The notes under the pieces were generated by a model. The model was not told where the DNA came from, searched no databases, and was given only the letters and a program-made list of their open reading frames with translations. Positions 96 to 56,236 of a stretch of 60,071 bases of DNA are shown one piece after another (positions within the stretch are counted from its first letter, which is position 1; the number at the start of each line of letters is the position of its first letter). The translations under genes and the position numbers were made by a program. This DNA is from Elusimicrobiota bacterium. Lineage in GTDB: Bacteria; Elusimicrobiota; Elusimicrobia; UBA1565; UBA9628. The DNA lies in assembly GCA_016212825.1 (NCBI GenBank), contig JACRDS010000113.1, positions 1-60,071 of the forward strand, read 5' to 3'.

Positions 96-191
96 ATCAT
101 TTTAAGTGTAACAGGAGGGGTGGGGTTTGTCAATGAGGAGAATGTGAATTCAATATTCTCGCAGGCGCGCGAGCGAAACGGTGCGGAAGGC

Positions 192-1943: not shown

Positions 1944-2039
1944 GACCGGGTAAGTATAGCGGACTGGACATAAATGTCAAGACTATGTCCAGGTGCCAGG
2001 CTTCAAGCGCGCCCAGCGCTCACTCGACAAGCCTGGCGC

Positions 2040-3773: not shown

Positions 3774-3788
3774 GTTGTCCCCCCACCG

Positions 3789-4523: not shown

Positions 4524-4524
4524 T

Positions 4525-5106: not shown

Positions 5107-5109
5107 GGC

Positions 5110-11450: not shown

Positions 11451-12719
11451 CTACGGCACGACCGGGAAGGAGCGGTCCGCGCTGCGCGCTCGGGTCATGG
11501 CGATGCGCCGGCTCCGCACGTCGCCTTTCTCGTCGAAGCTCGTGACCCCCAGCAGGCCGGCATGGCGGGTGCGCCGGACGGCCTTCAGGACGCGCGCGCG
11601 TTCGGGACCTACGGCCTGCAGGGCCTCCAGGATGATGCGCGCGGCCTCGTAGCCGTAGTGGTCGAAGGGGCGCGGGCCTTCGTCCCCCCAGCGGGCCCGG
11701 TAGGCGCCGATGAAGTCCCTGGCCCCGGGCAGCGTCTCGACCGGAGCTCCGGCCGTGGTCAGGTAGGCGCCGTCGGCCGAGCCTCCCGCCACGTCGAAGA
11801 GCACGGGCGTGCGGGCCCCGTCGCCGGAGCAGAACAGGAGCCGCAGCCTCAGGCGCGAGAGGCCCCTGAGGATGAGCCCGGCCTCCGGATAGCGCCCCCC
11901 GAAGAAGACCCCCTGCAGGCCGGGGGCCTGGAGGCTCTCCAGCGCCGCGCTGATGTCGCGCGAGCCGACCTTCACGACGGCCTCGGCCAGGACCTTCCCG
12001 CCCAGACGCCGGAACGTGCGCCGGAACTCTTCCGCCAGCCCCTGCCCGTAGAGGGTGCCGTCGTGCAGGACGGCCATCCGCTCCTGGCGCAGGCGCCCGC
12101 GCAGGTATTCCGCCGCGAAGCTGCCCTGCAGGTCGTCCGTGGGCACCAGGCGGAACACCACCCGGGCTCCCGGCCAATCGGGCCGCAGCTGGCGGCGGGT
12201 GACCTCGGGGTTCGTCGAGGCCGGGGAGATCATGGCCAGCGGGGCCCGGGCGTAGACCTGCGAGGCGCTGGCGGAGCAGTCCGAACTGTAGTGCCCGACC
12301 ACCGCCACGATCCGAGGGTCGGCCACGACCAGGTTGGCGACGTTGCGGGCCTCTTCCGGGTCGGCCCGGTCGTCGAACGCGACGGCCTCCACCCGGAAGG
12401 GGAGCTTCCCGGAAGCGTTGGCCTCCTCGAGCGCCAGGTCCACGGCGCGCCGCAGGCCGGCCCCTTCGCTGCCCAGGTCGCCGGTCAGGGGCAGGGCCAC
12501 CGCGATGCGCACGGCCTGACGGCGAGAGACGCAGCCGGCCCAGCCCAGGGCCAGGGCCGACACGACCGCGCCGGCGGTAAGGAGGTGCGTCCCGCCGGCA
12601 CCTGCGGAATTTCCGATGCCGCAGGCGCCGGCCAGGAACGATCCCAGCCGGCGCCGCGGTCCGGTCAGCTCGACCTTAACGGACAAGGCGCACCAGTATA
12701 GCTGAATGCCCGGTTTCAT
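11451..12719 (-). CDS. Branched-chain amino acid type ABC substrate-binding lipoprotein (LivK/Peripla_BP_6-like), no partner permease genes nearby
   Basis: The ORF 11451..12803 is trimmed to the ATG at 12719. It has a lipobox LGWAGC. RIAVALPLTGDLGSEGAGLRRAVDLALEEANASG...VGHYSSDCSASASQVYA...ISPASTNP is typical of Leu/Ile/Val-binding proteins. Confidence 0.75.
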   Translation of the reverse strand: MKPGIQLYWCALSVKVELTGPRRRLGSFLAGACGIGNSAGAGGTHLLTAGAVVSALALGWAGCVSRRQAVRIAVALPLTGDLGSEGAGLRRAVDLALEEANASGKLPFRVEAVAFDDRADPEEARNVANLVVADPRIVAVVGHYSSDCSASASQVYARAPLAMISPASTNPEVTRRQLRPDWPGARVVFRLVPTDDLQGSFAAEYLRGRLRQERMAVLHDGTLYGQGLAEEFRRTFRRLGGKVLAEAVVKVGSRDISAALESLQAPGLQGVFFGGRYPEAGLILRGLSRLRLRLLFCSGDGARTPVLFDVAGGSADGAYLTTAGAPVETLPGARDFIGAYRARWGDEGPRPFDHYGYEAARIILEALQAVGPERARVLKAVRRTRHAGLLGVTSFDEKGDVRSRRIAMTRARSADRSFPVVP

Positions 12720-12756
12720 TGCAACCCGGGGAGGCCATTCGCTATAATCTCTGCTT

Positions 12757-14805: not shown

Positions 14806-14811
14806 GCGGAC

Positions 14812-15864
14812 ATGCCCTCCCCCCTCTCCCTGCAGTTGGCGGTCTTCCGCTACATCCTGGGCCGCAAGCTCAAGGGCGACCAGCGCTTCCCCCTGGTGCT
14901 CATGCTCGAACCCCTCTTCGCCTGCAACCTGGAATGCGCGGGCTGCGGCAAGGTGCAGTTCCCCCCGGACGTCCTCAAGAAGCGCCTGAGCCCGGAGGCG
15001 TGCTGGGAGGCGGCCGAGGAATGCGGCGCCCCCGTGGTCTCGGTGGCGGGCGGCGAGCCCCTCATCCACCCCGACATCGACCGCATCGTCGACGGCCTGA
15101 CGCGCCGCGGCAAGTTCGTCTTCCTGTGCACCAACGCCCTGCTGCTGGAGAAGAACCTGCACCGCTTCAAGCCCTCCGCGCGCCTGATCCTCTCCGTGCA
15201 CCTCGACGGCCGCGAGCCGGTGCACGACCGCATCGTCTGCCGCCAGGGCGTGCACAAGACGGCGGTCTCGGCCATCCGGGCGGCCAAGGCCGCGGGCTTC
15301 CGGGTGATGACCAACTCCACCATCTTCCAGGGCCAGGACCCGGCCGAGTTCCGGCGCTTCTGCGAGGAGCTCGCCGGCCTGGGCACGGACGGCATCATGA
15401 TCGCGCCCGGCTTCGCCTACGAGAAGGCCAAGGGCCAGGAGATGTTCCTCAAGACGGACCAGACCAAGGCCTGGTTCCGTGAGGCCCTCAAGGACTGGCG
15501 CCGGATGGGCTGGGACTTCAACCACAGCCCCTTCTACCTCGATTTCCTCGAGGGCAAGCGGGACTACGACTGCACGCCCTGGGGCCTGCCCCTGCGCAAC
15601 GTGCTGGGCTGGCAGAGGCCCTGCTACCTCTTCGAGGAGGGCGGCTACGCCCGGACTTACAGGGAGCTGCTCGCCACCACGCGCTGGGACCAGTACGGCC
15701 GGGCCTCCGGGCACCCGGCCTGCGCCCACTGCATGTCGCACGTGGGCTTCGAGCCCTCCTCGGTCGTCGACGCCTTCTCCTCCCCCAAGCGCTTCCTGGA
15801 GCTGGTCTGGGACTACGCCACCATCCGCGGGCCGCGCAAGGCGCAGGCCGCCTACCCGCGCTGA
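14812..15864 (+). CDS. hpnH: Hopanoid biosynthesis radical SAM protein HpnH (adenosylhopane synthase)
   Basis: 350 aa. The N-terminus LQLAVFRYILGRKLKG and CNLECAGCG radical SAM cluster motif are typical of HpnH. It lies immediately downstream of shc. Confidence 0.9.
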   Translation: MPSPLSLQLAVFRYILGRKLKGDQRFPLVLMLEPLFACNLECAGCGKVQFPPDVLKKRLSPEACWEAAEECGAPVVSVAGGEPLIHPDIDRIVDGLTRRGKFVFLCTNALLLEKNLHRFKPSARLILSVHLDGREPVHDRIVCRQGVHKTAVSAIRAAKAAGFRVMTNSTIFQGQDPAEFRRFCEELAGLGTDGIMIAPGFAYEKAKGQEMFLKTDQTKAWFREALKDWRRMGWDFNHSPFYLDFLEGKRDYDCTPWGLPLRNVLGWQRPCYLFEEGGYARTYRELLATTRWDQYGRASGHPACAHCMSHVGFEPSSVVDAFSSPKRFLELVWDYATIRGPRKAQAAYPR

Positions 15865-16865
15865 TGGACACGGCCTTCGTCACCGGCGGCACGGGGTTCG
15901 TGGGCGCCAACCTGGTGCGCCTGCTCCTGGAGAAGGGCCTGAGGGTCAGGGCCCTGGTGCGCCAGGGCTCCGACCGCGCCAACCTCGACGGGCTGGACGT
16001 GGAGACCGTCAAGGGCGGAGTGCTCGACCAGGACGCCCTGCGCGCCGGCTGCGCCGGGGCGCGCTACGTCTTTCACGTGGCCGCGGACTACCGCATCTGG
16101 GTGCCGGACCCCGCCGAGATGCGCCGGGTCAACGTGGACGGCAGCGTCAACGTGGTCCGCGCCGCGGCCGCGGCCGGCGCCGAGCGCGTGGTCTACTGCT
16201 CCAGCGTGGCCGCGATCATGCCGCCCCACGGCCGCACGCCGGTCGACGAGACCTCCCGCTATCCGGGCGTGGACGCGGTGCCCGGGGACTACAAGAAGTC
16301 CAAGTACCTCGCGGAGCTGGCGGTGCTGGAGTTCGCCGCCCAGGGCGCCCCCGTGGTCGCGGTCAACCCGGCCGCTCCCATCGGGCCCTACGACCGCAAG
16401 CCCACCCCGACCGGGAAGATCCTGGTGGACTTCCTCAACGGCCGCATGCCCTCCTACATCGACACGGGCCTCAACGTGGTGCACGTGCGCGACGTGGCCC
16501 TGGGACACTGGCTGGCCGCGCAGAAAGGGCGCGTGGGCGAGCGCTACATCCTGGGCGGCGAGAACCTGACCTTCAAGGGGATACTGGACATCCTCTCCGA
16601 GGTGTCGGGACGGCCCGCGCCGCGCTTCAAGACCCCTTACGCCGTGGCCTACGGCTTCGCCGCGGTGGACACCGCCGTCTCGCGCCTGACCGGCTCGGAG
16701 CCGCGCGCCCCGCTCGACGCGGTGCGCATGGCCAAGCACTACATGTGGTACGATTCCGGCAAGGCCGCGCGCGAGCTGGGCTACGCCCCGGCGCCGGCGC
16801 GCCAGGCCCTGGCCGACGCGGTGGCTTGGTTCAAGGCCAACGGCTACGTGAGGGACGCCGCGTGA
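15864..16865 (+). CDS. hpnA: Hopanoid-associated NAD-dependent sugar epimerase/dehydratase family protein HpnA
   Basis: 333 aa with Rossmann motif VTGGTGFVGANLV and YxxxK (YKKSKYLAE). It sits inside the hpn cluster. Confidence 0.8.
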   Translation: MDTAFVTGGTGFVGANLVRLLLEKGLRVRALVRQGSDRANLDGLDVETVKGGVLDQDALRAGCAGARYVFHVAADYRIWVPDPAEMRRVNVDGSVNVVRAAAAAGAERVVYCSSVAAIMPPHGRTPVDETSRYPGVDAVPGDYKKSKYLAELAVLEFAAQGAPVVAVNPAAPIGPYDRKPTPTGKILVDFLNGRMPSYIDTGLNVVHVRDVALGHWLAAQKGRVGERYILGGENLTFKGILDILSEVSGRPAPRFKTPYAVAYGFAAVDTAVSRLTGSEPRAPLDAVRMAKHYMWYDSGKAARELGYAPAPARQALADAVAWFKANGYVRDAA

Positions 16866-17458
16866 GGAACGTCCTCGTGGCGGCGGCCACGCGCTGGGAG
16901 TCGGAGCCCATCCGCAGGGCGCTCTCCCGCCCGGCCCTCGTCCTGCGCACGGGCCTGGGGCCCGCGGCCGCCTCGGCGGCTCTGGCGCGGCTGGAGACGG
17001 AGCCCGCCCTGGTCGTGAGCGCCGGCTTCGCCGGCGCCCTGCAGCCGGACCTGCGCTGCGGCGACCTGGTCGCCTGCCAGCTCACCCCCTGCCCGCAGGC
17101 CGCCAAAGCCTTGGAGACCTCGGCCGTGGGCTTGGGCGTGGTCCCGCGCTTCGGCCGCATCCTGCACTCGGATTTCGTCCTGACCACGCCGGAGCAGAAG
17201 CGGGAAGCAGGCGAGCGCAGCGGCGCCCTGGCCGTGGACATGGAGTCCTCGGCCATCGCGGCCTGGGCCCGCGGGCGCGGGCTGCCCGCCCTCGCGGTGC
17301 GCGTGGTCTTCGACGAGCTCGACCGGCCCCTGCCCGCCGCGGGCTGGGCCATGCTCAACCCGTTCTTCTGGCCCCGGCTGGCCGCGTTCTGGCCCGTGCA
17401 GCGGCGCGCGGCCGCGGTCCTGTCTTCCGTCATGAGATCGTTCCTGGAGGCGCTGTGA
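16862..17458 (+). CDS. hpnG: Hopanoid-associated phosphorylase/nucleosidase HpnG (PNP_UDP_1 family)
   Basis: A GTG start at 16862 overlaps the hpnA stop (GTGA). It reads VRNVLVAAATRWESEPI...VVSAGFAGAL...ALAVDMESSAIAAWA, typical of MTA/SAH-nucleosidase-like HpnG. It is the 3' part of the long track ORF 15479..17458. Confidence 0.75.
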   Translation: MRNVLVAAATRWESEPIRRALSRPALVLRTGLGPAAASAALARLETEPALVVSAGFAGALQPDLRCGDLVACQLTPCPQAAKALETSAVGLGVVPRFGRILHSDFVLTTPEQKREAGERSGALAVDMESSAIAAWARGRGLPALAVRVVFDELDRPLPAAGWAMLNPFFWPRLAAFWPVQRRAAAVLSSVMRSFLEAL

Positions 17459-18366
17459 ACAGCCTGCTCAACCGCACTTTGGAGTCCGCCTCGCGCCGCG
17501 TGGAGGCGGTCCTCGGCCGCCTGCTCAAGGCCAAGCCCGAGGAGCCGGCGTCCATCCGCAAGGCCATGCGCTACTCCCTCTTCGCCGGCGGCAAGCGCCT
17601 GCGGCCCGCTTTGGTGGCCGCCGGCGCGGAGTGCTGCGGCGGCCGCGCCGCCCGCGTCCTCAAAGCCGGCGCGGCCCTGGAGATGATCCACACCTACTCG
17701 CTCATCCACGACGACCTGCCGGCCATGGACGACGACGACCTGCGCCGCGGCAAGCCCACCAGCCATAAGGTCTTCGGCGAGGCCCTGGCCATCCTGGCGG
17801 GCGACGGCCTGCTGACCTTGGCTTTCGAGACCGCGGCCGCCAACGCCAGGGAGTGCGGGCTGGGCGCCGCGGACACGTCCGAGTTCATCCGGGTCATCGC
17901 CGCGGGCGCGGGCACCTCGGGCATGGTGGGCGGCCAAGTCGCGGACCTGGGGGCTGAGAAGTGGAAGGGCCGGCTGTCCCGGGCCAAGGCCGGCCGCCTG
18001 CTCGAGTACATCCACCTGCACAAGACCGGCGCGCTCATCACGGCCAGCCTGGAGGCGGGCGCCATCCTGGCCAAGGCCTCCGCGGCCCAGCGCCGCGCCC
18101 TGCGCGCCTACGGCCGCGCCATCGGGCTCTCCTTTCAGATCGCCGACGACATCCTCGACTTGGTCGGGGATAAAGACAAGCTGGGCAAGCGGGGCTCCGA
18201 CGCGGCCAACCAGAAGCTGACCTACGTCTCGCTCTACGGCCTGGAGCGCGCCCGGGCGGAGGCGGCTTCATTGACCCGGCGCGCCCACCGAGCCCTGGCC
18301 CCCTTCGGGGCCCGGGCCGCGGTGCTGCACGAGCTGGCCGACTACATCGTCACGAGGGATAGATGA
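17455..18366 (+). CDS. ispA: Polyprenyl diphosphate synthase (farnesyl/geranylgeranyl diphosphate synthase, IspA-type)
   Basis: 303 aa with the first Asp-rich motif LIHDDLPAMDDDDLRRGKPT and the second, FQIADDILD. Confidence 0.9.
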   Translation: MNSLLNRTLESASRRVEAVLGRLLKAKPEEPASIRKAMRYSLFAGGKRLRPALVAAGAECCGGRAARVLKAGAALEMIHTYSLIHDDLPAMDDDDLRRGKPTSHKVFGEALAILAGDGLLTLAFETAAANARECGLGAADTSEFIRVIAAGAGTSGMVGGQVADLGAEKWKGRLSRAKAGRLLEYIHLHKTGALITASLEAGAILAKASAAQRRALRAYGRAIGLSFQIADDILDLVGDKDKLGKRGSDAANQKLTYVSLYGLERARAEAASLTRRAHRALAPFGARAAVLHELADYIVTRDR

Positions 18367-20276
18367 CCCAGGAACTGCTTTCCAAGATCCAGGACCCGGC
18401 GGACCTGCGCCGGCTCAAGCCGGAGCAGCTGCCCCAGGTCTGCGACGAGCTGCGCGAGACCATAATCGACACCATCTCCAAGAGCGGCGGGCACCTGGGC
18501 TCGAGCCTGGGGGCCACGGAGATCATCACCGCCCTGCACTACGTGTTCCAGACCCCGCGCGACAAGATCATCTTCGACACCGGGCACCAGAGCTACAGCC
18601 ACAAGCTCCTGACCGGGCGCCGCGAGAGGTTCGCGGGCATCCGGCAGTTCGGCGGCCTCTCGGGCTTCCCCAAGCGCTGCGAGTCCGAGTACGACACATT
18701 CGGAACGGGCCACGCCTCCACCGCGATCTCCGCGGCCCTGGGTATGGCCGCGGCGCGCGACCTCAAGGGCGAGGACTTCAAGGTCGTGGCCCTGGTGGCC
18801 GACGGCTGCATGACCGGCGGCGAGGCCTACGAGGGGCTGCAGAACGCGGGCATGCTGCAGTCGGACCTGCTGGTGATCCTCAACGACAACCAGATGTTCA
18901 TCTCCAAGCGCGTGGGCGCCTGGGGCACCTTCCTGACCAAGCTCCTGACCTTGGGCGCGGTGCGCGGAGCCGAGGACTCGGTCAAGAAGTTCCTGGCGCG
19001 CTTCCAGTTCTGGGGCTCGAGCATCCTGCGCGTGGCCAAGCGCGCGCGCGTCCTGCTCTTCCCGGGCATGCTCTTCGAGGAGATGGGCTTCGCCTACTTC
19101 GGCCCGGTGGACGGCCACGACGTGGTCCAGCTCGTGGAGGTGCTGCGCCACGTCAAGACCCTGCGCGGCCCGGCCCTGCTGCATTGCGTGACCAAGAAGG
19201 GCAAGGGCTACCCGCACGCGGAGAACGACGCCACGGCCTTCCACGGCCCCAGCCGCTTCGACGTGAGCACCGGGCAGTTCCTCAAGAACCCCACCCCCAA
19301 GGAGCCGCCGCCGAGCTACACGGCGGTCTTCGGCCAGGCGGTGGTGGAGGAGGCCCGGCGCGATCCGCGCGTGACCGCCATCACCGCGGCCATGCCCGAG
19401 GGCACGGGCCTGGACAAGTTTCGCGACGAGTTCCCCCGCCGCTTCTACGACGTGGGCCTCGCGGAGGCGCATGCGGTGACCTTCGCCGCGGGCCTGGCCG
19501 CGGAGGGCTACCGGCCGGTGGTGGCGCTCTACTCCAGCTTCCTGCAGCGCGGCTTCGACCAGGTGGCCCACGACGTCTGCCTGCAGAACCTGCCCGTGAC
19601 CTTCGCCATCGACCGCGGCGGCCTGGTGGGCGAGGACGGCCCCACTCATCACGGCGTGTTCGACCTGGGATTTTTGCGCCTGCTGCCCGACATCACGGTG
19701 ATGGCGCCGGCCGACGAGAACGAGCTGCGGCACATGCTGCGCACGGCATTGTCCTTGGGGACGCCGGCGGCCCTGCGCTACCCGCGCGGCCTGGGCGTGG
19801 GCGTGGCCCTGGACCCGGAGCCCCAGAGCCTGCCCGTGGGCAAGGGGGTGCGGCTCAAGGACGGCACGGCCGTGACCATCCTGGCCATCGGCGACCGCGT
19901 GCACCCCGCCCTGGCCGCGGCGCACCTGCTCGACGACATGGGCCTCTCCACGGGCGTGATCAACATGCGCTTCGTCAAGCCCCTCGACGAGGAGCTCGTG
20001 CGCCAGGCCGCGGCCGCCACGCCGCGGCTGGTGACCGTGGAGGACAACGCCCTGCCCGGCGGCTTCGGCAGCGCCGTGCTGGAGGTGGCCGCGGGCTCGG
20101 GCGCGCAGGTCCTGCGTCTGGGCATCCCGGACCGCTGGGTCGAGCACGGCTCGCTGAGCCAGCTCTACGACCTGACCGGCATCTCTTCCCAGAAGATCGC
20201 GCAGCGTACCGCCGAATGGCTGGGGCACCGGCCTCGCCCGGCCGCGGCGGCGATTCGTGCCCAGGAGGCGTCATGA
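18363..20276 (+). CDS. dxs: 1-deoxy-D-xylulose-5-phosphate synthase
   Basis: 637 aa. SGGHLGSSLGATEIITALHYVF, DTGHQSYSHKLLTGR and the TPP-binding region GDGCMTGGEAYEGLQNAG are present. An ATGA overlaps ispA. Confidence 0.95.
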   Translation: MTQELLSKIQDPADLRRLKPEQLPQVCDELRETIIDTISKSGGHLGSSLGATEIITALHYVFQTPRDKIIFDTGHQSYSHKLLTGRRERFAGIRQFGGLSGFPKRCESEYDTFGTGHASTAISAALGMAAARDLKGEDFKVVALVADGCMTGGEAYEGLQNAGMLQSDLLVILNDNQMFISKRVGAWGTFLTKLLTLGAVRGAEDSVKKFLARFQFWGSSILRVAKRARVLLFPGMLFEEMGFAYFGPVDGHDVVQLVEVLRHVKTLRGPALLHCVTKKGKGYPHAENDATAFHGPSRFDVSTGQFLKNPTPKEPPPSYTAVFGQAVVEEARRDPRVTAITAAMPEGTGLDKFRDEFPRRFYDVGLAEAHAVTFAAGLAAEGYRPVVALYSSFLQRGFDQVAHDVCLQNLPVTFAIDRGGLVGEDGPTHHGVFDLGFLRLLPDITVMAPADENELRHMLRTALSLGTPAALRYPRGLGVGVALDPEPQSLPVGKGVRLKDGTAVTILAIGDRVHPALAAAHLLDDMGLSTGVINMRFVKPLDEELVRQAAAATPRLVTVEDNALPGGFGSAVLEVAAGSGAQVLRLGIPDRWVEHGSLSQLYDLTGISSQKIAQRTAEWLGHRPRPAAAAIRAQEAS

Positions 20277-20773: not shown

Positions 20774-22144
20774 ATGAGAGCCGTCCTGACCGCCCTGCTG
20801 CTGCTCCCCGTCCTGTCCGGCTGCGGCACGCCGCTGCTGCGCGCGGTCGATCGCAACGACTTCTACGCGGTGCGCGAGCAGCTGGACAAGGGCGCCGACA
20901 TCAACCGGCAGGTGACGTTCGGAGAGTGCCACCAAGCCCTGGACTGCGCCTTGTCCAAGGGGCACCGGACCATCGCCAAGCTGCTCATCGAGCGCGGCGC
21001 GGACGTCCACGGCCAGGGGCTCTACGTCCCCCCTATCGTCACGACCGCCAGGAGGAACGACCCGGAGCTGGTCCAGCTCCTGCTCGACCACGGCGCGCGC
21101 GTGGACTCCCGCGATTGGGAGGGCAACGACGCCCTGACCGTGGCCGCCTTCCACGGCTACTGGGAGCTCGTGGACCTGCTCCTGGCCCGGAGCGCGGAGA
21201 TAGACAATGCCGTGGCCCGGCTGGAGGTCTTCGCGCAGGAGACGGGGGTCTGGGCCAACCCGGCCGCGGCGCGCGGCGGCATCGCCAAGCTCCGCCGCCG
21301 TTCCGCCGGACGGACGGTCGAGGCCGCTCCCGCGTCCGAGCCGGTCCGGAAGGCGGCGCCGGCCCCTGATGTTGACGCGCCGTCCTACAGGCTCCCAGAG
21401 CGCGGCGCGGACTTCGCCGTCGTGGTGGGCATCGAGGACTACAGCGCCCTGCCGCCGGCCCGCTTCGCGGCGCGCGACGCGCAGGCCGTGGCCGCGCACC
21501 TCAAGGCCCTGGGGGTCCCGGAGCGCAATATCGCTTTGCTCACCGGCGTGCAGGCCACCAGGACCGGCCTGGCCAAGAACATAGAGGCCTGGCTGGCCAA
21601 CAACGTGGACGAGCGCTCCACGGTCTTCTTCTACTATTCCGGGCACGGCGCGCCCCAGCCGGAGACGGGCGAGGCCTTCCTGGTCCCCTTCGACGGCGAC
21701 CCGGAGTACCTGGCCGAGACCGGCTACCCGCTCAAGCGCCTCTACGAGAAACTGGGCGGCCTCAAGGCCAAGCGCGTCATCGCGGTCCTGGACTCCTGCT
21801 TCTCCGGCGCCGGCGGCCGCTCGGTGCTGGCCAAGGGCACCCGGCCGTTGGTCAACAAGATCGACGTGGGCGCTCCGACAGGGGCCAAGGTGGTGTCCTT
21901 GAGCGCCTCGCAGGCCAGCCAGGTCTCGGGCGCGGACGAGGAGGCCCGCCACGGGCTCTTCACCTACCACCTGCTCATGGGTCTCAACGGCGCGGCCCAG
22001 GACCGGGCCGGCGGGGTCACGGTGAAGTCCCTCTTCGACTATCTGGCGCCCAGGGTCGCCGACGGCGCCCGGCGTTCCAACCGCAGCCAGACCCCCCGGA
22101 TGCTGCCCGAAGCCGGGCCGGCGGGGCAGTGGCGGCTCAGGTAG
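20774..22144 (+). CDS. Lipoprotein with N-terminal ankyrin repeats and C-terminal caspase-like (peptidase C14) domain
   Basis: 456 aa with lipobox LLPVLSGC. ANK repeats: DKGADINRQ, GHRTIAKLLIERGADVH, NDPELVQLLLDHGARVDSRDWEGNDALTVAAFHGYWELVDLLL. Caspase p20-like: FAVVVGIEDY, His in FFYYSGHGAP, Cys in AVLDSCFSGAGG. Confidence 0.85.
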   Translation: MRAVLTALLLLPVLSGCGTPLLRAVDRNDFYAVREQLDKGADINRQVTFGECHQALDCALSKGHRTIAKLLIERGADVHGQGLYVPPIVTTARRNDPELVQLLLDHGARVDSRDWEGNDALTVAAFHGYWELVDLLLARSAEIDNAVARLEVFAQETGVWANPAAARGGIAKLRRRSAGRTVEAAPASEPVRKAAPAPDVDAPSYRLPERGADFAVVVGIEDYSALPPARFAARDAQAVAAHLKALGVPERNIALLTGVQATRTGLAKNIEAWLANNVDERSTVFFYYSGHGAPQPETGEAFLVPFDGDPEYLAETGYPLKRLYEKLGGLKAKRVIAVLDSCFSGAGGRSVLAKGTRPLVNKIDVGAPTGAKVVSLSASQASQVSGADEEARHGLFTYHLLMGLNGAAQDRAGGVTVKSLFDYLAPRVADGARRSNRSQTPRMLPEAGPAGQWRLR

Positions 22145-38329: not shown

Positions 38330-39808
38330 ATGTCACATGCCCCCCGAGATCGGAAGGCGCCCGCGATCCGCCGGCTCATCCCTGCGGCGGCCGCCGCCCT
38401 TGCGCTGCTCATATCCGGCTGCGCCACACCGTCCCCATTCCTGCGCGTCGGACCGCCCCAGGCCGCAGACGCGGACAGCCCCTACGCGGGCGAGAACGTC
38501 TATTTGAGGTCCTTCGTGGTGAGGACGAAGGGGAAGGACCCGCGCGCCGAGGCCGCCATCCGCGCGGACTTCATCGACTACCTGACCAAGCTCGGGAAGT
38601 TCCAAAAGGTCGTCGACGCCACCCAGGGCGGGCTCGATATCCCCTCGGACGCGTTGAGCATCAACGTGGATCTGCGGCCTTCGCTCAGCGCGAATGACAA
38701 CGCCTTCGCGCAGTATTTCTCGATCTATGTCGCCACCTTGCTCTTCCCCCGGAAGGGCTCGGTCACGGTCAACGGCAATTCCACGGTCCTGCGCGGCCAG
38801 ACGGTGATCGGCAACATGTCCTGGACCTGCACCGAGAACTACGGGCTCCTCTTCCTCGGCTGGGCCCGCACGGGACCCATCGCGGAGGCGTACCGGTCCT
38901 GCTATGCCGAGACCTTCGCCCATATCGCGGTCCCGACCCGGGCCGAGGCGGGAGCGGGCATCTCCGCGGCCGCTCTGCAGAGCATGGTCGAGAAGAGCGT
39001 CCAGAAGGCCACCGCCAAGGAGGAGAAGGCCTACGACTCCGACGTGGACAAGCCCGGCTACCAGACCCCGGAGGACAAGGACAACTTCGCGCTGGTGATC
39101 GGGATCGAGAAATACCAGCAACTGCCTCAGGCCGATTTCGCGGAGAGGGATGCCCAGACCATCAAGGACCACCTGGTGGCCTTGGGCTATCCGCGGCGCA
39201 ACATCGTCCACTTGTCCGGCAGCCTGGCCACCCGGTCCAACATGGAGAAATACCTGGAGTCCTGGCTGCCCGCGCGCGTGGGCGCGGACTCCAAGCTGCT
39301 CGTCTATTTCTCGGGCCATGGCTCCCCGGGCATAGATTCCGGGCAAGCCTACCTGGTGCCCTGGGACGGGGACGTGAATTTCCTCGCGAAGACAGGCTAT
39401 CCGCTCAAGCGCCTATACGAGAACCTCAACGCCCTTGCGGCCAGGAGGGTGGTCGTCCTGTTGGACTCCTGCTTCTCAGGCGCCGGGGGCCGCTCCATCC
39501 TGCCCAAAGGGACCCGTCCCCTGGTCAGCAAAGTCGACGTGGGCGGCGGCACTCTGGGCAAGGTCGTGGTGCTCTCGGCCTCGGATTCCAGCGAGATCAC
39601 AGGCGCCGACGAGGCGCAAGGCCACGGCCTGTTCACCTATCATCTGCTCAAGGGGCTCAACGAGAAGAGGGGGCAGGCGACCTTGAAGGCTCTCTACGAC
39701 TATCTCCTGCCCCGGGTCCAGGACGCCGCCCGGCACCAGAACCGGGACCAGACCCCGCAATTGCTGTCCTCCGGCTCCGACGGCGAAGAGCTCTCATTGC
39801 GGGACTAG
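38330..39808 (+). CDS. Caspase-like (peptidase C14) lipoprotein, paralog of 20774..22144, with unrelated N-terminal domain
   Basis: 492 aa with signal IRRLIPAAAAALALLISGC (lipobox; RR motif). The caspase domain has FALVIGIEKY, VYFSGHGSP (His) and VLLDSCFSGAGG (Cys). It aligns by eye through most of the C-terminal 250 aa with the ANK-caspase protein. Confidence 0.85.
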   Translation: MSHAPRDRKAPAIRRLIPAAAAALALLISGCATPSPFLRVGPPQAADADSPYAGENVYLRSFVVRTKGKDPRAEAAIRADFIDYLTKLGKFQKVVDATQGGLDIPSDALSINVDLRPSLSANDNAFAQYFSIYVATLLFPRKGSVTVNGNSTVLRGQTVIGNMSWTCTENYGLLFLGWARTGPIAEAYRSCYAETFAHIAVPTRAEAGAGISAAALQSMVEKSVQKATAKEEKAYDSDVDKPGYQTPEDKDNFALVIGIEKYQQLPQADFAERDAQTIKDHLVALGYPRRNIVHLSGSLATRSNMEKYLESWLPARVGADSKLLVYFSGHGSPGIDSGQAYLVPWDGDVNFLAKTGYPLKRLYENLNALAARRVVVLLDSCFSGAGGRSILPKGTRPLVSKVDVGGGTLGKVVVLSASDSSEITGADEAQGHGLFTYHLLKGLNEKRGQATLKALYDYLLPRVQDAARHQNRDQTPQLLSSGSDGEELSLRD

Positions 39809-49914: not shown

Positions 49915-51234
49915 ATGCCCGCCAAGACCTCGCCCGTGAAGCCCGATTATCCCCGCATCGTCTCCGTGCCTCCCGGCCCCAAGGCCCGCAAGGTCATCGC
50001 CCTGGATCGTGAGTGGACCTCCCCCTCCTACATCAAGGAGTATCCCCTGGTGGCGGCCGGCGGCAAGGGCGCCATGGTGGAGGACGTGGACGGCAACCGC
50101 TACATCGACTGGATGGCGGGCATCGCGGTCTCGGCCACGGGCTACAACCACCCGAAGGTGGTCAAGGCCATCCACGAGGCCGTCGACAAGTTCCTGCACA
50201 TCTGCGGCACGGACTTCTACTACGAGTCCATGGCCCGGCTCTGCGAGAAGCTGGCCAAGACCGCTCCGGGCCGGGACAAGCACCGGGTCTTCCTGACCAA
50301 CTCCGGGACCGAGGCCGTCGAGGGCGCGGTCAAGCTGGCGCGCTACCACACCAAGCGGCCGCACCTCATCGCCTTCGAGGGGGCCTTCCACGGCCGCTCC
50401 TACGCGGCCGTGACCTTGACCTGCAGCAAGGTCAAATACAAGGCCGGCTTCGGGCCCATGCTCCCGGAAGTCAGCCACCTCCCCTACGACAACCCTTACC
50501 GCGGCGGAGACCCGATGGCCGCGGCGCACCGGCTCTTCGAGAGCAAGGTCTCGCCCAAGGACGTGGCCGCGGTGTTCATGGAGCCGATCCAGGGCGAGGG
50601 CGGCTACATCATGCCGCGGCCGGAGTTCGTGAAGGCCTGGCGGCGCATCTGCGACGAGCACGGCATCCTGCTGGTCTTCGACGAGATCCAGTCCGGCGCG
50701 GGCCGCAGCGGCAAGATGTGGGCCTGCGAGCACTTCGGCGTGGAGCCCGACGTCCTGCTCACCGCCAAGGGCCTGGGCTCGGGGCTGCCCATCGGCGCGA
50801 TCGTGGCCAAGGAGAAGGTGATGACCTGGGGCCAGGGCACGCACGGCACGACCTTCGGCGGCAACCCGGTCTGCTGCGCGGCGGCCCTGGCGACCTTGGA
50901 TCTGGTCCAGGACGGGCTGGCCGACAACGCGGCCAGGATGGGTGCGCGGCTCATCGCGGGCCTGCGCCAGCTGCAGGAGAAGCATCCGTCCATCGGCGAC
51001 GTCCGCGGCACGGGCCTCATGATCGGCGTGGAGTTCGTCAAGGACCGCAAGACCAAGGAGCCGGCCGGGGAGCTGGTGGGCAAGCTGGAGCAGCTGGCCT
51101 TCCGCAAGGGGCTGCTGCTGCTCTCCTGCGGCAAGTCGGTCATCCGGGTGGCGCCGCCTTTGGTGCTCAACGAGCACGACGTGGACGCGGGCCTGGCCGT
51201 CCTCGACGAGTGCCTGGCCGAGCTGGGCGGCTGA
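49915..51234 (+). CDS. Class III aminotransferase (GabT / acetylornithine aminotransferase-like)
   Basis: 439 aa. Motifs: NSGTEAVEGAVKLARYHT, FDEIQSGAGRSGKMWA, and the PLP-lysine context TAKGLGSGLPIGA. Confidence 0.85.
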   Translation: MPAKTSPVKPDYPRIVSVPPGPKARKVIALDREWTSPSYIKEYPLVAAGGKGAMVEDVDGNRYIDWMAGIAVSATGYNHPKVVKAIHEAVDKFLHICGTDFYYESMARLCEKLAKTAPGRDKHRVFLTNSGTEAVEGAVKLARYHTKRPHLIAFEGAFHGRSYAAVTLTCSKVKYKAGFGPMLPEVSHLPYDNPYRGGDPMAAAHRLFESKVSPKDVAAVFMEPIQGEGGYIMPRPEFVKAWRRICDEHGILLVFDEIQSGAGRSGKMWACEHFGVEPDVLLTAKGLGSGLPIGAIVAKEKVMTWGQGTHGTTFGGNPVCCAAALATLDLVQDGLADNAARMGARLIAGLRQLQEKHPSIGDVRGTGLMIGVEFVKDRKTKEPAGELVGKLEQLAFRKGLLLLSCGKSVIRVAPPLVLNEHDVDAGLAVLDECLAELGG

Positions 51235-53319
51235 TCAGGCCGCCCGGGCGCCCAGCCCCTCGCGCGACGGCAAAGTGAAGTAGAAGGTCGAGCCTCGGCC
51301 GACCTCGCTCTCCACCCAGACCGTGCCGTCGTGCAGGCGGATGAACTCGCTGACCAGGGCCAGCCCCAGGCCGACGCCCGGCTGGGAGCCGTCGTTGTTG
51401 TCGGCCTGGGTGAACTTCTCGAAGAGCTTCTTGAGGCTCTCTTTTGGGATCCCGGCGCCCGTGTCGCGCACCGCGCAGACCACGTGCCCGTGCTTGTCCG
51501 GCTTGGGCGCGGCCGCCACCACGATCCGCCCGCCCTCGGGCGTGAACTTGATGGCGTTGGAGATGAGGTTGGTGAGCACCTGCACGATGCGCTGGTGGTC
51601 GGCCATCACCATCAGGTCCGGGACCGGGGGCCGATAGGAGAGGTCCAAGCCTTTGTTCCCGGCCCAGGGCCGCAGGCTCTCCACGGCCTCCTGGAGCATG
51701 CCGGTGACCGAGGTCGGGGTCGGACGGATCGACATCCTGCCCGCCTTCAGCTTGGAGAAGTCCAGGATCTCCCGGATCATGGAGCTGAGCTGCTGGCTGT
51801 TGCGCAGGCACACGTCGATGAAGCCGTTCTCGTCGGACCCCAGGCTCGGCGCGGCCCGCTCGCTGAGCAGTTCCAGGGCGCAGGTGATGGAGGACAGCGG
51901 GGCCTGCAGGTCGTGGGTCACGCGGGAGAGGAACTCCTCCTGCAGGCGCAGGGTCTCCTTGTACTTGACCACGTCCGGCAGCGCGGAGTAGGTGCCCACC
52001 ACCCGGCCGGAGGGGTCCTCGACCACGGCCACGGAGCGGCGCAGGGCCCGGCCCACCTCCTCGTCGGCCACCACCCGCACCTCGATCTTGCTGCCGGGGC
52101 TCAACCCCAGATCCTCGGCGAGCGCCACCATGTGCTCCCCCGAGGCGACGCCCTCCGTGATGTGCCGGCCGGCCAGTTCCAGGAGCCGCTTGCCGAGCAG
52201 TTCCTCGGCCGCCGGGTTCATCATGAGGACCTTCCCCTCCTTGTCCACCACCACCTTGCCGTAGGCCACGCTCTCGATAACCTTCTCGGTGCGCGCCTGC
52301 TCGCCGCGGATGCGCTCTTTCTCCTCGGTCAATCTCCGAGTGGCGTCCTCCACGCGTTCCGCTATGGAGTCCTTGACCAGGCGCGCCGCGTCCTCGAAGA
52401 GCTTGAGCCGCTCCGCCGGGTCCTGGACGGCAAACTCCACCAGGGACTTGAGCAGGACCCCGAAGCTCTTGCCGGCGGCTAAGGAGCCGCCGCCTCCCGT
52501 CGGCGCGGGCGCTTCCGGAGCCGGCGCGGGGAGCTCCGGGGCCTTCGCTTCCGGCCGCGCCTGCAGCTCCGGCAGCCAGGACCGGTCCTCCGGCGGATAG
52601 GGATAGCGGTCCACCGGCGGCTCAGGTGTGCGTTCTTTGGCGGCCGGCCCCTTGGGCGCCGCCCCCTCCGGGAAGGGGGGACGTCCGCCCTCCGGGGCCG
52701 GCGCCTCCCGAGGCGCCGGCCGCCAGTCCGGACCCAAGGGCCTGGGGATGCCTGACGAAGGTTGCCGGACGGCGGGACGGGGTTCCGGGAGCGCCGCGGC
52801 AGGCGCGGCCGGGGGCGCGGCGGTGGCGTCAGCCGCAGAGACGTAGCTGGCGAGCTCGACTGTGACATGCGCGACCCCTTTCCTGGCCAGGGCATCCCCC
52901 AGAGAGCCGGTGACTTCCGGACTCGGGGGGGCCGAGGCCGCCTCGCAGAAGATGGTCAGTTCCGCGGGCTGCAGGCCGCGCGCGAAGCCCAGGCTGCGCA
53001 GGCCCTGCTCCTTGAACAGGCGCCGGAGGATCTCCGTGCTCTGCGCTCCGGTCTGCACCAGCGTCCCCTCGCAGAACCAGCGCCCTTCCGCCATGGACAC
53101 GGAGATGCGCTCCCGGCGCCCGGTCACGAAGGCCATGTCCAGCAGGTTGAAGACGTCGCGTATGGAATCCGCGGCCATGGGGTGGCTGGCCCGGTAGAGG
53201 CCGGTGAGGCGCACGGCGCGGCCCAGGCTGCCCAGGAGTTCGCCGCAGACCGCGGCGAAGGACGGGGCGCCGGCCGGGATGCCCGCGGGCGTCTGGACCG
53301 CTCGTCGTTGGGGCTCCAT
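51235..53319 (-). CDS. Soluble sensor histidine kinase (unassigned N-terminal domain, Pro-rich linker, PAS, HisKA, HATPase_c)
   Basis: 694 aa with no TM helices seen. H-box FLSRVTHDLQAPLSSI, N-box LTNLISNAIKFTPEGG, G1 VRDTGAGIP, G2 GVGLGLALV. The PAS-like segment is VVVDKEGKVLMMNPAAEELLG. Confidence 0.85.
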   Translation of the reverse strand: MEPQRRAVQTPAGIPAGAPSFAAVCGELLGSLGRAVRLTGLYRASHPMAADSIRDVFNLLDMAFVTGRRERISVSMAEGRWFCEGTLVQTGAQSTEILRRLFKEQGLRSLGFARGLQPAELTIFCEAASAPPSPEVTGSLGDALARKGVAHVTVELASYVSAADATAAPPAAPAAALPEPRPAVRQPSSGIPRPLGPDWRPAPREAPAPEGGRPPFPEGAAPKGPAAKERTPEPPVDRYPYPPEDRSWLPELQARPEAKAPELPAPAPEAPAPTGGGGSLAAGKSFGVLLKSLVEFAVQDPAERLKLFEDAARLVKDSIAERVEDATRRLTEEKERIRGEQARTEKVIESVAYGKVVVDKEGKVLMMNPAAEELLGKRLLELAGRHITEGVASGEHMVALAEDLGLSPGSKIEVRVVADEEVGRALRRSVAVVEDPSGRVVGTYSALPDVVKYKETLRLQEEFLSRVTHDLQAPLSSITCALELLSERAAPSLGSDENGFIDVCLRNSQQLSSMIREILDFSKLKAGRMSIRPTPTSVTGMLQEAVESLRPWAGNKGLDLSYRPPVPDLMVMADHQRIVQVLTNLISNAIKFTPEGGRIVVAAAPKPDKHGHVVCAVRDTGAGIPKESLKKLFEKFTQADNNDGSQPGVGLGLALVSEFIRLHDGTVWVESEVGRGSTFYFTLPSREGLGARAA

Positions 53320-53320
53320 A

Positions 53321-55315
53321 TCATCCTCCCATCATGATCTTGAGGGCCTCGTCGACCGAGGTCTCCCCGGAGGCCACCACGCGCAGGGCGGCCTGGCGCA
53401 GGGTGGTCAGGCCCTCCTTTTCCGCCAGTTCCTGGAGCGCATTGGCCTGCTGGTTGTTGACGATGAGCTGGCGCAGGGCCAGGCTGTCCACCGGCATGAC
53501 CTCGAAGACCGACCTGCGGCCCATGTAGCCGGTCTGATGGCAGTACGCGCAGCCCGGGGCGCGGAACACGGTCTTGAGCGCCGCGATCTCGCGCTCCTCC
53601 AGGAACTTCTTGTCTGCGTCGGAAAGGGTCCCCGGGGCCTTGCAGCGCGGGCAGAGCTTGCGCACCAGGCGCTGGGCGATGATCAGGCGCACGCTCGCCG
53701 CCACCAGGTAGGGAGCCACGCCCATGTGGGTCAGCCGGATGATGCTCGCGGGAGCGCTGTTGGTGTGCAGGGTGGAGAACACCAGGTGCCCGGTGATGGA
53801 GGCCTTGACCGCGATCTCCGCGGTCTCCAGGTCGCGGATCTCGCCGATGAGCATGATGTCCGGGTCCTGGCGCAGGAAGGCGCGCAGGGCGGACTCGAAT
53901 GTAAGCCCGATGCTGGGCCGGACCTTGACCTGGGAGATGTTGGCCAGCTCGTATTCGACCGGGTCCTCGGCGGTCATGATGTTGACGTCCGGCCGGTTGA
54001 GCATGCTGATCATGGTGTAGAGTGTGGTGGTCTTGCCGCTGCCCGTGGGTCCGGTGACCAGGATGAGGCCGTGCGGCGCGTGCAGGGCTTTTTCGACGCA
54101 AGCCAGATCCCGGGGCGTGAGGTCGAGGCTCTTCAGGTCGCCCTTGAGCTTGCTCTGCCCGAGGACGCGCATGACGATCTTCTCCCCGCGCGTGCAGGGC
54201 AGGGTGCTGATGCGGAACTCGATCCGGGTGCCCTTGATCTGCGCCCGGAACTGCCCGTCCTGGGGCAGGCGCCGCTCCGTGATGGAGAGGTTGGACATGA
54301 TCTTGATTCGGGCCGTCAGCCGGGGGTGGATGTTGATGGGCAAAGTGCACAGGAGCTTGAGGGCCCCGTCCACCCGGACCCGGACGCTGACCTTCTGCTC
54401 CCCGGGCTCGATGTGGATGTCCGAGGCCCGCATCTCCACGGCCCGCATCAGGATGCGGTTGACCCGGTTGATGAGCGGCGAGTCCTGGGCCAGCTGCTGC
54501 TCGAGCCCGCGCAGGTCCGCCGTGTCCTCCTTCTTCTCTTCCGCCGCCTCCAGGGCGATATCCTCTTCCCCTGAGAGGTCCGCCAGGGATTCCTCGCCGA
54601 TGAGGGCTTCCGGCTCAGGCAGCTCCGGAGCGGCGGCCTCCGGCTCAGGGGCCTCCGGAGGAGGCGGAGCCTCGGGCTGCACCTCCAGCGCCGAAGGCGC
54701 CGGTGGTGCGGCTGGGGGGCTTACCCGAGGCTCCGCAGAACGATCCTCCGGAGGCGGAACGGTCTCTTCCTGCGCCGGTGCCGCGGGCAGGGCGGCGAGC
54801 GCCTTCTCGACGCTTTCCAGGAGACGCGCGTTGGTCACGGGCTTCTCCAGGAAATCGGATATCTCCAGGTTCAGGCTCTTGAGGTGCTGCCGGTTGGGCG
54901 CGCCCGTGAACATGATCACGGGCAGGCCGCGCAGCTCGAGCCGGCTGCGCAGCTCCTGGAGCACCTCGTAGCCGTTCATCCTCGGCATGTTGAAATCCAG
55001 GATGACAAGGTCGGGGCGGCGGCGCTCGACCTGCTCCAGGGCGCTGCGGCCGTCGCCGGCCTCCATGACCCGGTAGGAATGGCTGGTGAGCAGGACCTTC
55101 ACGAGAGAACGGTAATCCTTGTTGTCCTCCACGACCAGGACGGTCCGCCCCCCGGCGGGACAGCGCTCCTCCCGCACGCCCGCCAGCTGGGGCCTCGCCG
55201 GCTCCGGCGCCGCCCTGGCCGCGGACTCCTCCCGAGCCCAGACTCCCGGCTGCGCGCGCCCCTTGAGCAGGGCGTCCATCTTCTCGCTGAGTTCGGCTAG
55301 CGGATCGCGCTCCAT
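53321..55315 (-). CDS. Response-regulator receiver domain fused to a GspE/PilB-family secretion ATPase
   Basis: 664 aa. REC motifs: TVLVVEDNKD, DLVILDFNMPRMNG, VIMFTG, FLEKP. A P/A/E-rich linker follows. ATPase core: RRLPQDGQF, GPTGSGKTTT, DPDIMLIGEIRD, TGHLVFSTLHTN, CPRC...CAYC. A 1-nt gap separates it from the kinase gene. Confidence 0.9.
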   Translation of the reverse strand: MERDPLAELSEKMDALLKGRAQPGVWAREESAARAAPEPARPQLAGVREERCPAGGRTVLVVEDNKDYRSLVKVLLTSHSYRVMEAGDGRSALEQVERRRPDLVILDFNMPRMNGYEVLQELRSRLELRGLPVIMFTGAPNRQHLKSLNLEISDFLEKPVTNARLLESVEKALAALPAAPAQEETVPPPEDRSAEPRVSPPAAPPAPSALEVQPEAPPPPEAPEPEAAAPELPEPEALIGEESLADLSGEEDIALEAAEEKKEDTADLRGLEQQLAQDSPLINRVNRILMRAVEMRASDIHIEPGEQKVSVRVRVDGALKLLCTLPINIHPRLTARIKIMSNLSITERRLPQDGQFRAQIKGTRIEFRISTLPCTRGEKIVMRVLGQSKLKGDLKSLDLTPRDLACVEKALHAPHGLILVTGPTGSGKTTTLYTMISMLNRPDVNIMTAEDPVEYELANISQVKVRPSIGLTFESALRAFLRQDPDIMLIGEIRDLETAEIAVKASITGHLVFSTLHTNSAPASIIRLTHMGVAPYLVAASVRLIIAQRLVRKLCPRCKAPGTLSDADKKFLEEREIAALKTVFRAPGCAYCHQTGYMGRRSVFEVMPVDSLALRQLIVNNQQANALQELAEKEGLTTLRQAALRVVASGETSVDEALKIMMGG

Positions 55316-55376
55316 ATCCCCCCCAACCGCTTCGCAATCAGTTTAGCAGGGGGGCGTCAACAAAACGTCAAGCGCG

Positions 55377-56096
55377 CTAGATCTCGAAGCGGTAGCCGCT
55401 GCCCGGGACCGTCACGATGCGCCGGCTGAGCTTGGACCCCAGCTTGCGGCGCAGGGAGGAGAGGTGCACGGTCACGGTGTGGGGGTCGTTGTACTCGGCC
55501 AGGTCGTAGCCCCACACCGACTCGAGCAGGAACTGCGCGGAGAGGACATGCCCCCGCTTGCGCAGCAGCAGGGTGAGCAGGTCGAACTCCTTGCGGGTCA
55601 GGTCGACGCGCTTGCCGCCGTGGCTGACGGTCCGGGCCTGCACGTCCAGGCGCACGCCGTCGGCGCGCAGCACCTCGCAGACCTCGACCGCGGTGGCGTA
55701 GCGGCGCAGCACGGCCAAAGTCTTGGCCAGCAGGATCGGCGGCTCGAAGGGCTTGAGCACGTAGTCGTCGGCCCCGCGCGCGAAGCCCTCCAGTTGGTCG
55801 CGCTCCTCCTTGCTGGCGCCGGACATGAGCAGGACCGGGATGCCCGCGGTCTTGGCCTCGGCGCGCAAGCGGCGGCACAGTTCCAGCCCGTCCATGTCCG
55901 GCATCTGCACGTCCGAGATGACGATGTCCGGCTGCGAGTCCACCGCCGCCAGGAGGGCCTCCCGGCCTGAAGCCGCGTCGAGCACCGTGTGGCCGGCCTC
56001 GCGCAGGAAGGAGCGCAGCATCCTGCGGAAATCCTGCTCGTCGTCCACGAGCAGGATCTTGTAGCGCAGCGAGGAGCCTTCGGTCGTCTGGGACAT
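55377..56096 (-). CDS. OmpR/PhoB-family DNA-binding response regulator
   Basis: The track ORF is trimmed to the ATG at 56096 (MSQTTEGSSLRYKILLVDDEQDF). REC motifs: DIVISDVQMPDMDG, VLKPF. The winged-helix region is LTRKEFDLLTLLLRKRGHVLS...VTVHLSSLRRKL. Confidence 0.9.
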   Translation of the reverse strand: MSQTTEGSSLRYKILLVDDEQDFRRMLRSFLREAGHTVLDAASGREALLAAVDSQPDIVISDVQMPDMDGLELCRRLRAEAKTAGIPVLLMSGASKEERDQLEGFARGADDYVLKPFEPPILLAKTLAVLRRYATAVEVCEVLRADGVRLDVQARTVSHGGKRVDLTRKEFDLLTLLLRKRGHVLSAQFLLESVWGYDLAEYNDPHTVTVHLSSLRRKLGSKLSRRIVTVPGSGYRFEI

Positions 56097-56236
56097 AGCC
56101 AGGACGGCGGACGGCGGCCGCCGGGATTCCATTATAGCTCTATTCATGACCGAACGGGAGGCTTTTCTTAAGTCTACCTGAGCAATGTCAAAGTCCGGTC
56201 AAAGGCGGGGCCGTGAAACCCCTGGCGCGATTTAGG

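Follow-up and report, generated by a model that had tools for sequence, protein, structure and literature searches.

The question raised by contig JACRDS010000113.1 of an Elusimicrobiota bacterium is whether the motor of a type IV filament system can be controlled by phosphorylation of a receiver domain fused directly to it. In the stretch analysed (positions 1 to 60,071 of the contig, 60,071 nucleotides, referred to as the window; GC content about 69%), three neighbouring minus-strand genes encode an OmpR/PhoB-family response regulator of 256 aa (55377..56147), a fusion of a receiver domain (REC) to a PilB-type ATPase of 664 aa (53321..55315) and a soluble PAS histidine kinase of 694 aa (51235..53319). 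The regulator and fusion genes are separated by 61 nt and the fusion and kinase genes by 1 nt, and the GC content at third codon positions is of the coding type in all three genes (0.91-0.94). These open reading frame coordinates agree with the preliminary description of this DNA, and the domain architecture proposed there was found again in Pfam searches: Response_reg and T2SSE in the fusion, PAS, HisKA and HATPase_c in the kinase, REC and winged-helix Trans_reg_C in the regulator. The interpretation favoured here, to which a probability of roughly 55% is given, is that the fusion is a phosphorylation-gated extension motor of the PilB type with a dedicated kinase, a transcriptional feedback branch and a client machine encoded elsewhere.

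The receiver of the fusion occupies residues 59-169 (54809..55141, minus strand; Response_reg, E 6e-27) and contains the acidic pair E63-D64, the phospho-acceptor D107, T136 and K158. It is followed by a linker (residues 170-275, 54491..54808) which, judged by composition and alignment, is largely Pro/Ala/Glu-rich and of low complexity, and then by the motor core comprising N2D and CTD (T2SSE, residues 276-658, 53342..54490; E 1e-132, 442 bits). The T2SSE match spans positions 3-369 of the 370 in the profile and includes the Walker A motif GPTGSGKTTT, the Asp box, Walker B, the His box and a tetracysteine zinc motif of the kind typical for assembly ATPases. In an alignment of 117 family members D64, D107, T136 and K158 of the receiver are kept in at least 95% of sequences, and so are Walker A, Walker B/Asp box, the His box and C555, C558, C589 and C592 of the core. 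The receiver had been described as apparently intact and this conservation across the family bears it out; a degenerate pseudo-receiver is ruled out by the same figures. The phospho-acceptor residues are retained in all three REC classes. The linker also corresponds to its first description, as Ala, Pro and Glu make up 67% of residues 172-262 (23% A, 23% P and 21% E); it is poorly conserved, partly gapped in the family alignment and variable in length, and the two-domain homologues span 574-753 aa. No transmembrane-like segment was detected in the fusion (the highest 19-residue Kyte-Doolittle score is 1.48).

The receiver stands in place of the N-terminal domain of a canonical motor, as had been proposed from a comparison with the second ATPase of the window, the pilB product at 192..1943 (minus strand). 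That protein has an MshEN domain at residues 72-149 ahead of T2SSE, whereas no Pfam match to MshEN/N1D was obtained in the fusion, whose N-terminus is Response_reg. An assembly or frameshift artefact, or chance, is excluded, because more than 100 independent homologues from different assemblies share the architecture: among 5.8 billion proteins searched, more than 100 clusters (90% identity) combine PF00072 with PF00437 and are 50-88% identical to the fusion, and those with a named source come almost all from Elusimicrobia/Elusimicrobiota assemblies. The reverse case was met in one related locus (L010), where receiver and core are split over two overlapping frames (7878-8444 and 8339-9868).

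The affinity of the ATPase core was examined with structures, family profiles and genomes. The best match in the PDB (phmmer) was PilB of M. xanthus (3jc8, 388 bits), followed by the PilB structures 5zfr, 6olj and 5tsg (374-383 bits), with lower scores for GspE (338-343 bits), PilF (314-316 bits), BfpD (138 bits) and PilT (132 bits); the alignment begins at about residue 145 of PilB, right after N1D. Among NCBIfam profiles PilB (TIGR02538, 519.7 bits) ranked slightly above GspE (TIGR02533, 501.8 bits). The core had initially been called GspE-type: its complete set of motor motifs was found as described, and the generic GspE label gave way to a PilB-like one on these PDB and NCBIfam scores. In GTDB, with one genome per species, the full fusion was found in 13 loci, all of Elusimicrobiota. 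The next-best 67 loci encode canonical PilB of about 565 aa without a receiver, from Nitrospirota, Zixibacteria, Fibrobacterota and other phyla, and a PilT-like gene adjoins most of them.

All 30 bootstraps of a neighbour-joining tree of cores united 20 fusion cores in a single clade, whose sister is the canonical PilB set with, among others, the PilB at 192..1943; the tree was built without a GspE reference, and the choice between PilB and GspE is taken from the hidden Markov model (HMM) and PDB scores. The fusion core is 45-52% identical to PilB proteins of other phyla and 41% identical to the PilB of the window, and this last value together with the separate clade rules out a recent duplicate of the latter. 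Judged from these alignments and the tree, the fusion is an old PilB paralogue of single origin, in which the receiver has replaced N1D.

The gene neighbourhoods were compared in 20 loci, comprising 19 related Elusimicrobiota loci (cited by their L numbers) and the window. The same kinase family follows the fusion gene in 18 of the 19 informative loci, L001 being left out of this count because its contig ends too early. The spacing between the two genes is -4 to +17 nt, or else a single tetratricopeptide repeat (TPR) gene lies between them. The adjacent kinase, suspected at first from the window alone, thus turned out to be a conserved partner, usually overlapping the fusion gene or lying a few nucleotides away. 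The intervening gene, which is missing from the window, encodes a cytoplasmic TPR protein of about 250 aa in six loci (L001, L007, L008, L011, L082 and L084, for example at 11859..12608 of L084). A pilotin lipoprotein of the PilF/PilW/Tgl type was considered for it and rejected, since it has neither signal peptide nor lipobox and its NCBIfam scores lie far below the cut-offs; the protein may be an adaptor. In L087 a receiver-HD-GYP protein, a putative c-di-GMP phosphodiesterase, is encoded directly after the kinase (12337..13326), which hints at a link of the module to c-di-GMP signalling.

The kinase consists of an N-terminal domain, a Pro/Ala-rich linker whose length varies among the loci, a coiled coil and the PAS (residues 343-444), HisKA (residues 460-527; 47 bits) and HATPase_c (residues 574-686; 108 bits) domains, the last three encoded at 51262..52293 on the minus strand. 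With an H-box histidine in the DHp domain and N- and G-box residues in the CA domain it belongs to the HisKA class. H469 is invariant in an alignment of 17 orthologues, as are the N- and G-box residues N584, N588, D619, G621, G623, G648, G650 and G652. A transmembrane-like segment was not found in it (the highest 19-residue Kyte-Doolittle score is 1.32), in keeping with its first description as a soluble protein.

The N-terminal domain of the kinase (residues 17-160, 52840..53271, minus strand) is somewhat shorter than first described (about 145 aa versus about 170), and the earlier remark that it could not be assigned holds for both Pfam and the PDB. Residues 17-160 gave no Pfam match even at E<=10, a search with the domain alone returned no homologues, and in the PDB Foldseek found no fold match better than E 0.78 and TM 0.33. 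The AlphaFold2 model, based on a 15-sequence alignment, has a pLDDT of 90.7 and a pTM of 0.85; in it a small alpha/beta unit comes after two long helices. Seven residues are invariant among the 17 orthologues (L41, Y42, H46, P47, F102, E120 and E126), and the domain is present in the fusion-downstream kinase of every locus that has this kinase. The idea that it might be the displaced MshEN/N1D of the motor, or a mimic of N2D, found no support: to the lack of a Pfam match at E<=10 are added an hhalign probability of 0.2% against the fusion family and Foldseek hits to GspE/PilB chains at the level of noise (E 1.8-7, TM about 0.25). The domain may serve in signal sensing or in contact with the motor.

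The third gene of the module is less constant. In 14 of the 20 loci the gene directly upstream of the fusion, in the same orientation, encodes a DNA-binding response regulator, which is of the OmpR type in the window, L001, L012, L081 and L082 and of the AraC type in nine (L002-L006, L010, L013, L083 and L087). In L086 an OmpR-type regulator gene is oriented divergently, and L007, L011 and L084 retain the kinase with no adjacent transcription factor. The OmpR regulator, counted in the preliminary description as a part of the module, is therefore a member in the window and not a constant one, as nine of the 20 loci have the AraC type and some have none. In the regulator of the window, Response_reg (residues 31-141) and Trans_reg_C (residues 178-254) both score above their Pfam cut-offs, and REC retains the DD/D/S/K residues. 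The best NCBIfam match is PhoB, under its cut-off; since no equivalog cut-off was reached, no specific orthology is claimed. The longest regulator reading frame has a perfect TATAAT (56131..56136, minus strand) within its first 17 codons, and this hexamer is conserved in L081. It speaks for the start further downstream, at 56096, which is more likely than that at 56147 and would give a protein of 239 aa, as in the gene call for the orthologue in the syntenic L081.

A direct repeat TTGACCGGACTTTGAC of the form TTGAY-N6-TTGAY, with a period of 11 bp, is located upstream of the regulator gene (56187..56202, minus strand) and is a candidate regulator site. The 61-nt gap before the fusion gene holds a promoter-like element (55340..55371, minus strand) composed of a second such repeat, TTGACGTTTTGTTGAC (55356..55371), and, 9 nt after its second TTGACG hexamer, the -10-like hexamer TAAACT (55340..55345). 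TTGAY-N6-TTGAY has no match in the 60-kb window other than these 2, where chance would give 0.01, and each of them precedes a module gene, one 5' of the regulator and one 5' of the fusion. With its period of 11 bp and its end some 10 bp ahead of the -10 hexamer, the direct repeat resembles PhoB boxes in geometry. A similar repeat is also found upstream of the regulator gene in L081, and before the fusion gene the repeat with a TAnACT -10-like hexamer recurs in L081, L082 and L001, with TAnACT alone in L012. In 7 of 9 loci with AraC-type regulators a different conserved element takes its place, GTGGAAAAAAGTCA...GCCAATTG-N~21-TATACT, which was not found in L002 or L010.

Because the 61-nt gap holds a conserved promoter-like element, the fusion and kinase genes look like an operon of their own. 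Of the three-gene operon assumed at the outset, the fusion-kinase part was thus retained and a simple co-transcription with the regulator gene was not. As the upstream element changes with the type of regulator, the promoter from which fusion and kinase are transcribed is probably regulator-dependent, and the regulator would, from the position of its candidate site, also control its own gene. The proposal that one kinase feeds both a transcriptional and a motor branch is plausible, given the 14 of 20 loci that have a regulator gene directly before the fusion and the candidate site in front of both promoters.

The constancy of the kinase and the variability of the regulator can be set against the possibility that the kinase signals to the DNA-binding regulator only, the fusion receiver being served by another kinase or acting as a phosphorylation-independent structural or dimerisation module. 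The kinase is of the HisKA (PhoR/WalK-like) class, the classic partner of OmpR-family regulators, candidate regulator boxes precede both promoters, and in L009 the fusion occurs without the kinase, all of which would suit such an arrangement. The regulator, however, switches family or is absent while the fusion-kinase pair is kept in 18 of 19 loci, the stop and start codons of fusion and kinase often overlap, and pseudo-receivers usually lose the D/D/T/K residues that are at least 95% conserved here, so that a kinase devoted to the regulator alone is considered very improbable.

The flanks of the module encode aminotransferases, CoA-transferase subunits and an MFS transporter, and inspection of the flanking genes revealed no pilin, platform or secretin gene beside it, as had been noted at first sight. 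On the kinase side the gene meets an aminotransferase gene of the opposite strand (49915..51234, plus), the two stop codons abutting at 51232..51237, with zero intergenic bases and no terminator-like hairpin between the convergent stops. Elsewhere in the window a canonical type IV pilus-like cluster (1..8699, minus strand), identified by its gene content, is a candidate client machine. In addition to pilB it comprises genes, all on the minus strand, for a PilQ-type secretin (2040..3773), a GspM/PilO-like protein (4525..5106), a long PilM-like protein (5110..6741) and an OmpA-domain protein (6738..8699). At the left edge of the window (1..~100, minus strand) a partial reading frame beginning MGRFNYTVQDSKGETTSG resembles the N-terminus of a PilC/GspF platform protein. 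The cluster is adjoined at 8756..11308 (minus strand) by a gene for an 850-aa protein with O-antigen-ligase (Wzy_C) and TPR domains; Wzy_C enzymes encoded beside pil genes are sometimes pilin O-glycosyltransferases.

In some of the related loci the genes next to the fusion suggest a link to retractile pili. The start of the fusion gene in L086 is overlapped by a true pilT, whose 447 bits exceed the PilT/PilU family cut-off of 319, and PilT-like genes take the equivalent position in L011 and L008; most loci, the window included, have no pil gene beside the fusion. These observations bear on the possibility that the fusion is the phospho-regulated motor of another type IV filament-class machine than the 1..8699 cluster, for which a pseudopilus like that of type II secretion systems, a competence pilus or another pilus system outside the window are candidates. 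The cluster has its own ATPase, the core is farther from the PilB of the window than from PilB of other phyla, GspE scores just below PilB, and a different REC-T2SSE family occurs in an exopolysaccharide cluster of L088, 6 kb from genes for pilin and prepilin peptidase. PilB nevertheless ranks consistently over GspE in the PDB and genome matches, pilT, which adjoins the fusion in L086 and has its like in L011 and L008, is specific to retractile type IVa pili, and gsp or com genes were found near the fusion in none of the loci examined. A different machine is accordingly rated unlikely, though of the competing explanations it is the one given most weight.

The separation of the fusion gene from structural genes, together with the missing N1D docking domain, would also be expected of a non-productive regulatory paralogue, either a competitor for the platform acting as a brake or a phosphate sink that tunes the pathway from the kinase to the transcription factor. 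As a precedent, Acinetobacter baylyi is reported to have two extension ATPases and a motor inhibitor that act on a single pilus (bioRxiv 10.1101/2020.09.28.317149). The catalytic motifs and the zinc site are, on the other hand, strongly conserved among homologues 50-88% identical to the fusion, which would be needless for a pure sink, and the kinase is kept beside the fusion in L007, L011 and L084, where a transcription factor is not adjacent. A non-productive role seems improbable for these reasons, more so than a motor of another machine and less so than a kinase acting on the regulator only.

The mechanism proposed for the phosphorylation-gated extension motor starts from the domain that the fusion has lost. 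N1D of canonical PilB/GspE is a regulatory and docking domain which binds c-di-GMP and contacts PilM/GspL. Since N1D regulates and docks the canonical motors, phosphorylation of the receiver that substitutes for it would control assembly or docking. The soluble kinase would sense an intracellular cue through PAS and/or its N-terminal domain, autophosphorylate on H469 and pass the phosphoryl group to D107 of the fusion receiver. Phosphorylation of the receiver would then control assembly of the hexamer and/or its docking on a pilus platform encoded elsewhere, a candidate being that of the cluster at 1..8699, with filament extension switched on or off as the outcome. The same kinase probably phosphorylates the upstream DNA-binding regulator as well, of the OmpR type here, which would bind the TTGAC-N6-TTGAC repeats before its own gene and before the fusion-kinase operon and lead to autoregulation. 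The elements of this scheme that we infer are the phosphotransfer from kinase to fusion, whether it activates or inhibits, the client machine and the signal sensed; the effect on hexamerisation or docking is likewise suggested by analogy with the function of N1D and with NtrC-type receiver-ATPases.

Several points weigh against this mechanism. The loss of N1D removes the presumed docking domain for PilM/GspL, and productive docking is therefore not guaranteed. A canonical PilB with MshEN is already present in this genome, encoded beside secretin and platform genes, and pilin, PilC, PilM and secretin genes were adjacent to the fusion in 0 of 20 loci. One locus (L009/L085) contains the fusion without the kinase. 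The fusion stays under the NCBIfam cut-off for PilB (519.7 versus 675.65 bits), matching only profile positions 147-561, and it is also under that for GspE (501.8 versus 630.25 bits); both scores fall short because the part of the fusion corresponding to the N-terminus of these profiles is missing. All the host organisms are uncultivated and represented by metagenome-assembled genomes. The literature searched contained neither a characterised REC-PilB/GspE fusion nor experiments on any member, in line with the preliminary description, whose author knew of no characterised example.

Receiver::PilB fusions are widespread in metagenomes and not rare. Their architectures were surveyed by an exhaustive HMMER scan of 1.84 billion representatives (50% identity clusters) with the full fusion as the query, which favours receiver-containing proteins and biases the list towards them. 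Among the best 150 representatives there were 37 clusters with an N-terminal receiver, 46 with a C-terminal receiver, 14 double-core T2SSE proteins (about 1000 aa long) and 53 canonical proteins. The checked examples with a C-terminal receiver are ordered MshEN-T2SSE-REC, named members of this group come from Planctomycetota, Omnitrophota and Mariprofundaceae, and no kinase was found beside the one such locus inspected (L089). A different N-terminal-REC::T2SSE family is represented in L088 (7001..8818) inside a Wzz/Wzy/glycosyltransferase exopolysaccharide cluster; it has no adjacent kinase, and genes for pilin and prepilin peptidase follow about 6 kb downstream. The tandem-T2SSE proteins of about 1000 aa (P0149-P0168) include one cluster named Parcubacteria, and P0149 has T2SSF (platform) matches at its N-terminus and may be a fusion of motor and platform.

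One such receiver-motor protein is named "PilB-like protein/CheY-like" in the automatic annotation of the Joint Genome Institute (JGI), and the class is regarded here as known to databases and uncharacterised. Regulation of PilB by c-di-GMP, PilZ/FimX, Pil-Chp and phage inhibitors is treated in a review from 2024, which includes no receiver-fused PilB (PMC11656802), and the MshEN papers note combinations of MshEN with REC, not REC joined to the ATPase core (PMC4624772, PMC5013675).

The fusion shares with PilB (M. xanthus, 3jc8; Geobacter metallireducens, 5tsg/5tsh) the N2D and CTD core, Walker A/B, the Asp and His boxes and the tetracysteine, and differs in having a receiver and linker in place of GSPII/MshEN (N1D), in lying outside a pil cluster and in forming a separate clade. 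The MshEN-T2SSE-REC proteins carry the same two domain families on a PilB/GspE-type core, but their receiver is C-terminal and MshEN is kept. Extension motors are known to be controlled by c-di-GMP on N1D, by adaptors (PilZ/FimX, SgmX), by trans-acting response regulators and at the level of transcription. In NtrC-type receiver-AAA+ ATPases an N-terminal receiver controls how a ring ATPase assembles or how active it is. By functional analogy the fusion may work like these proteins. It is not one of them; its ATPase fold and output are unrelated, and it has no sigma-54 interaction or DNA-binding domain. TadZ/CpaE bears an atypical N-terminal receiver-like domain on an ATPase of a type IV filament system; TadZ is, however, an ATPase of the MinD/ParA type and not a motor, and its receiver is devoid of phospho-acceptor chemistry.

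In MshE, PilB and GspE with c-di-GMP-bound MshEN (PMC4624772, PMC5013675) a signalling domain also lies N-terminal to the motor core and an extension or secretion ATPase is also controlled post-translationally, but in the fusion, which has no MshEN domain with its RLGxx(L/V/I)(L/V/I)xxG motif pair, the input would be phosphorylation by a dedicated kinase and not a second messenger. Regulators acting on PilB in trans, namely PATAN-REC of Synechocystis (bioRxiv 10.1101/2021.06.11.447907), PilG/PilH of P. aeruginosa (PMC10519157) and DrdR of Xanthomonas (PMC13507683), link phosphorylation in two-component or chemosensory systems to how active a pilus motor is or where it is localised; the receiver of the fusion differs from these in being covalently attached to the motor and paired with a classical histidine kinase, not one of the CheA type.

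Elsewhere in the window an apparent hopanoid/isoprenoid cluster on the plus strand (12757..20276) contains genes for a squalene-hopene cyclase (12757..14805), a radical-SAM protein with DUF3463 (14812..15864), an NAD-dependent epimerase (15864..16865), a polyprenyl synthetase (17455..18366) and a DXP synthase (18363..20276). Caspase-domain (Peptidase_C14) proteins are encoded at 20774..22144, where the domain is fused to ankyrin repeats, and at 38330..39808, both on the plus strand.

Taken further than the locus itself, the findings lead to a broader proposal, put forward tentatively as a possibility with the odds against it: that in a whole class of type IV filament motors phosphorylation of a fused receiver acts as the direct switch, without a second messenger or an adaptor. 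In the case of Elusimicrobiota, a dedicated cytoplasmic kinase with a sensor fold absent from the PDB would feed both the motor and an autoregulatory transcription factor, and the receiver, substituting for N1D, would allow the platform to be engaged only when phosphorylated. If the reading of the fusion as a phosphorylation-gated motor is true, no path from a signal to pilus dynamics could be shorter than a motor covalently joined to a receiver and served by a kinase of its own, and the pair of one kinase and one substrate would offer a handle on how N-terminal domains gate PilB-type hexamers. The N-terminal sensor domain of the kinase poses a second research question beside that of motor control. 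The family is large, with two topologies and members in several phyla, so that many uncultivated bacteria may share the mechanism.

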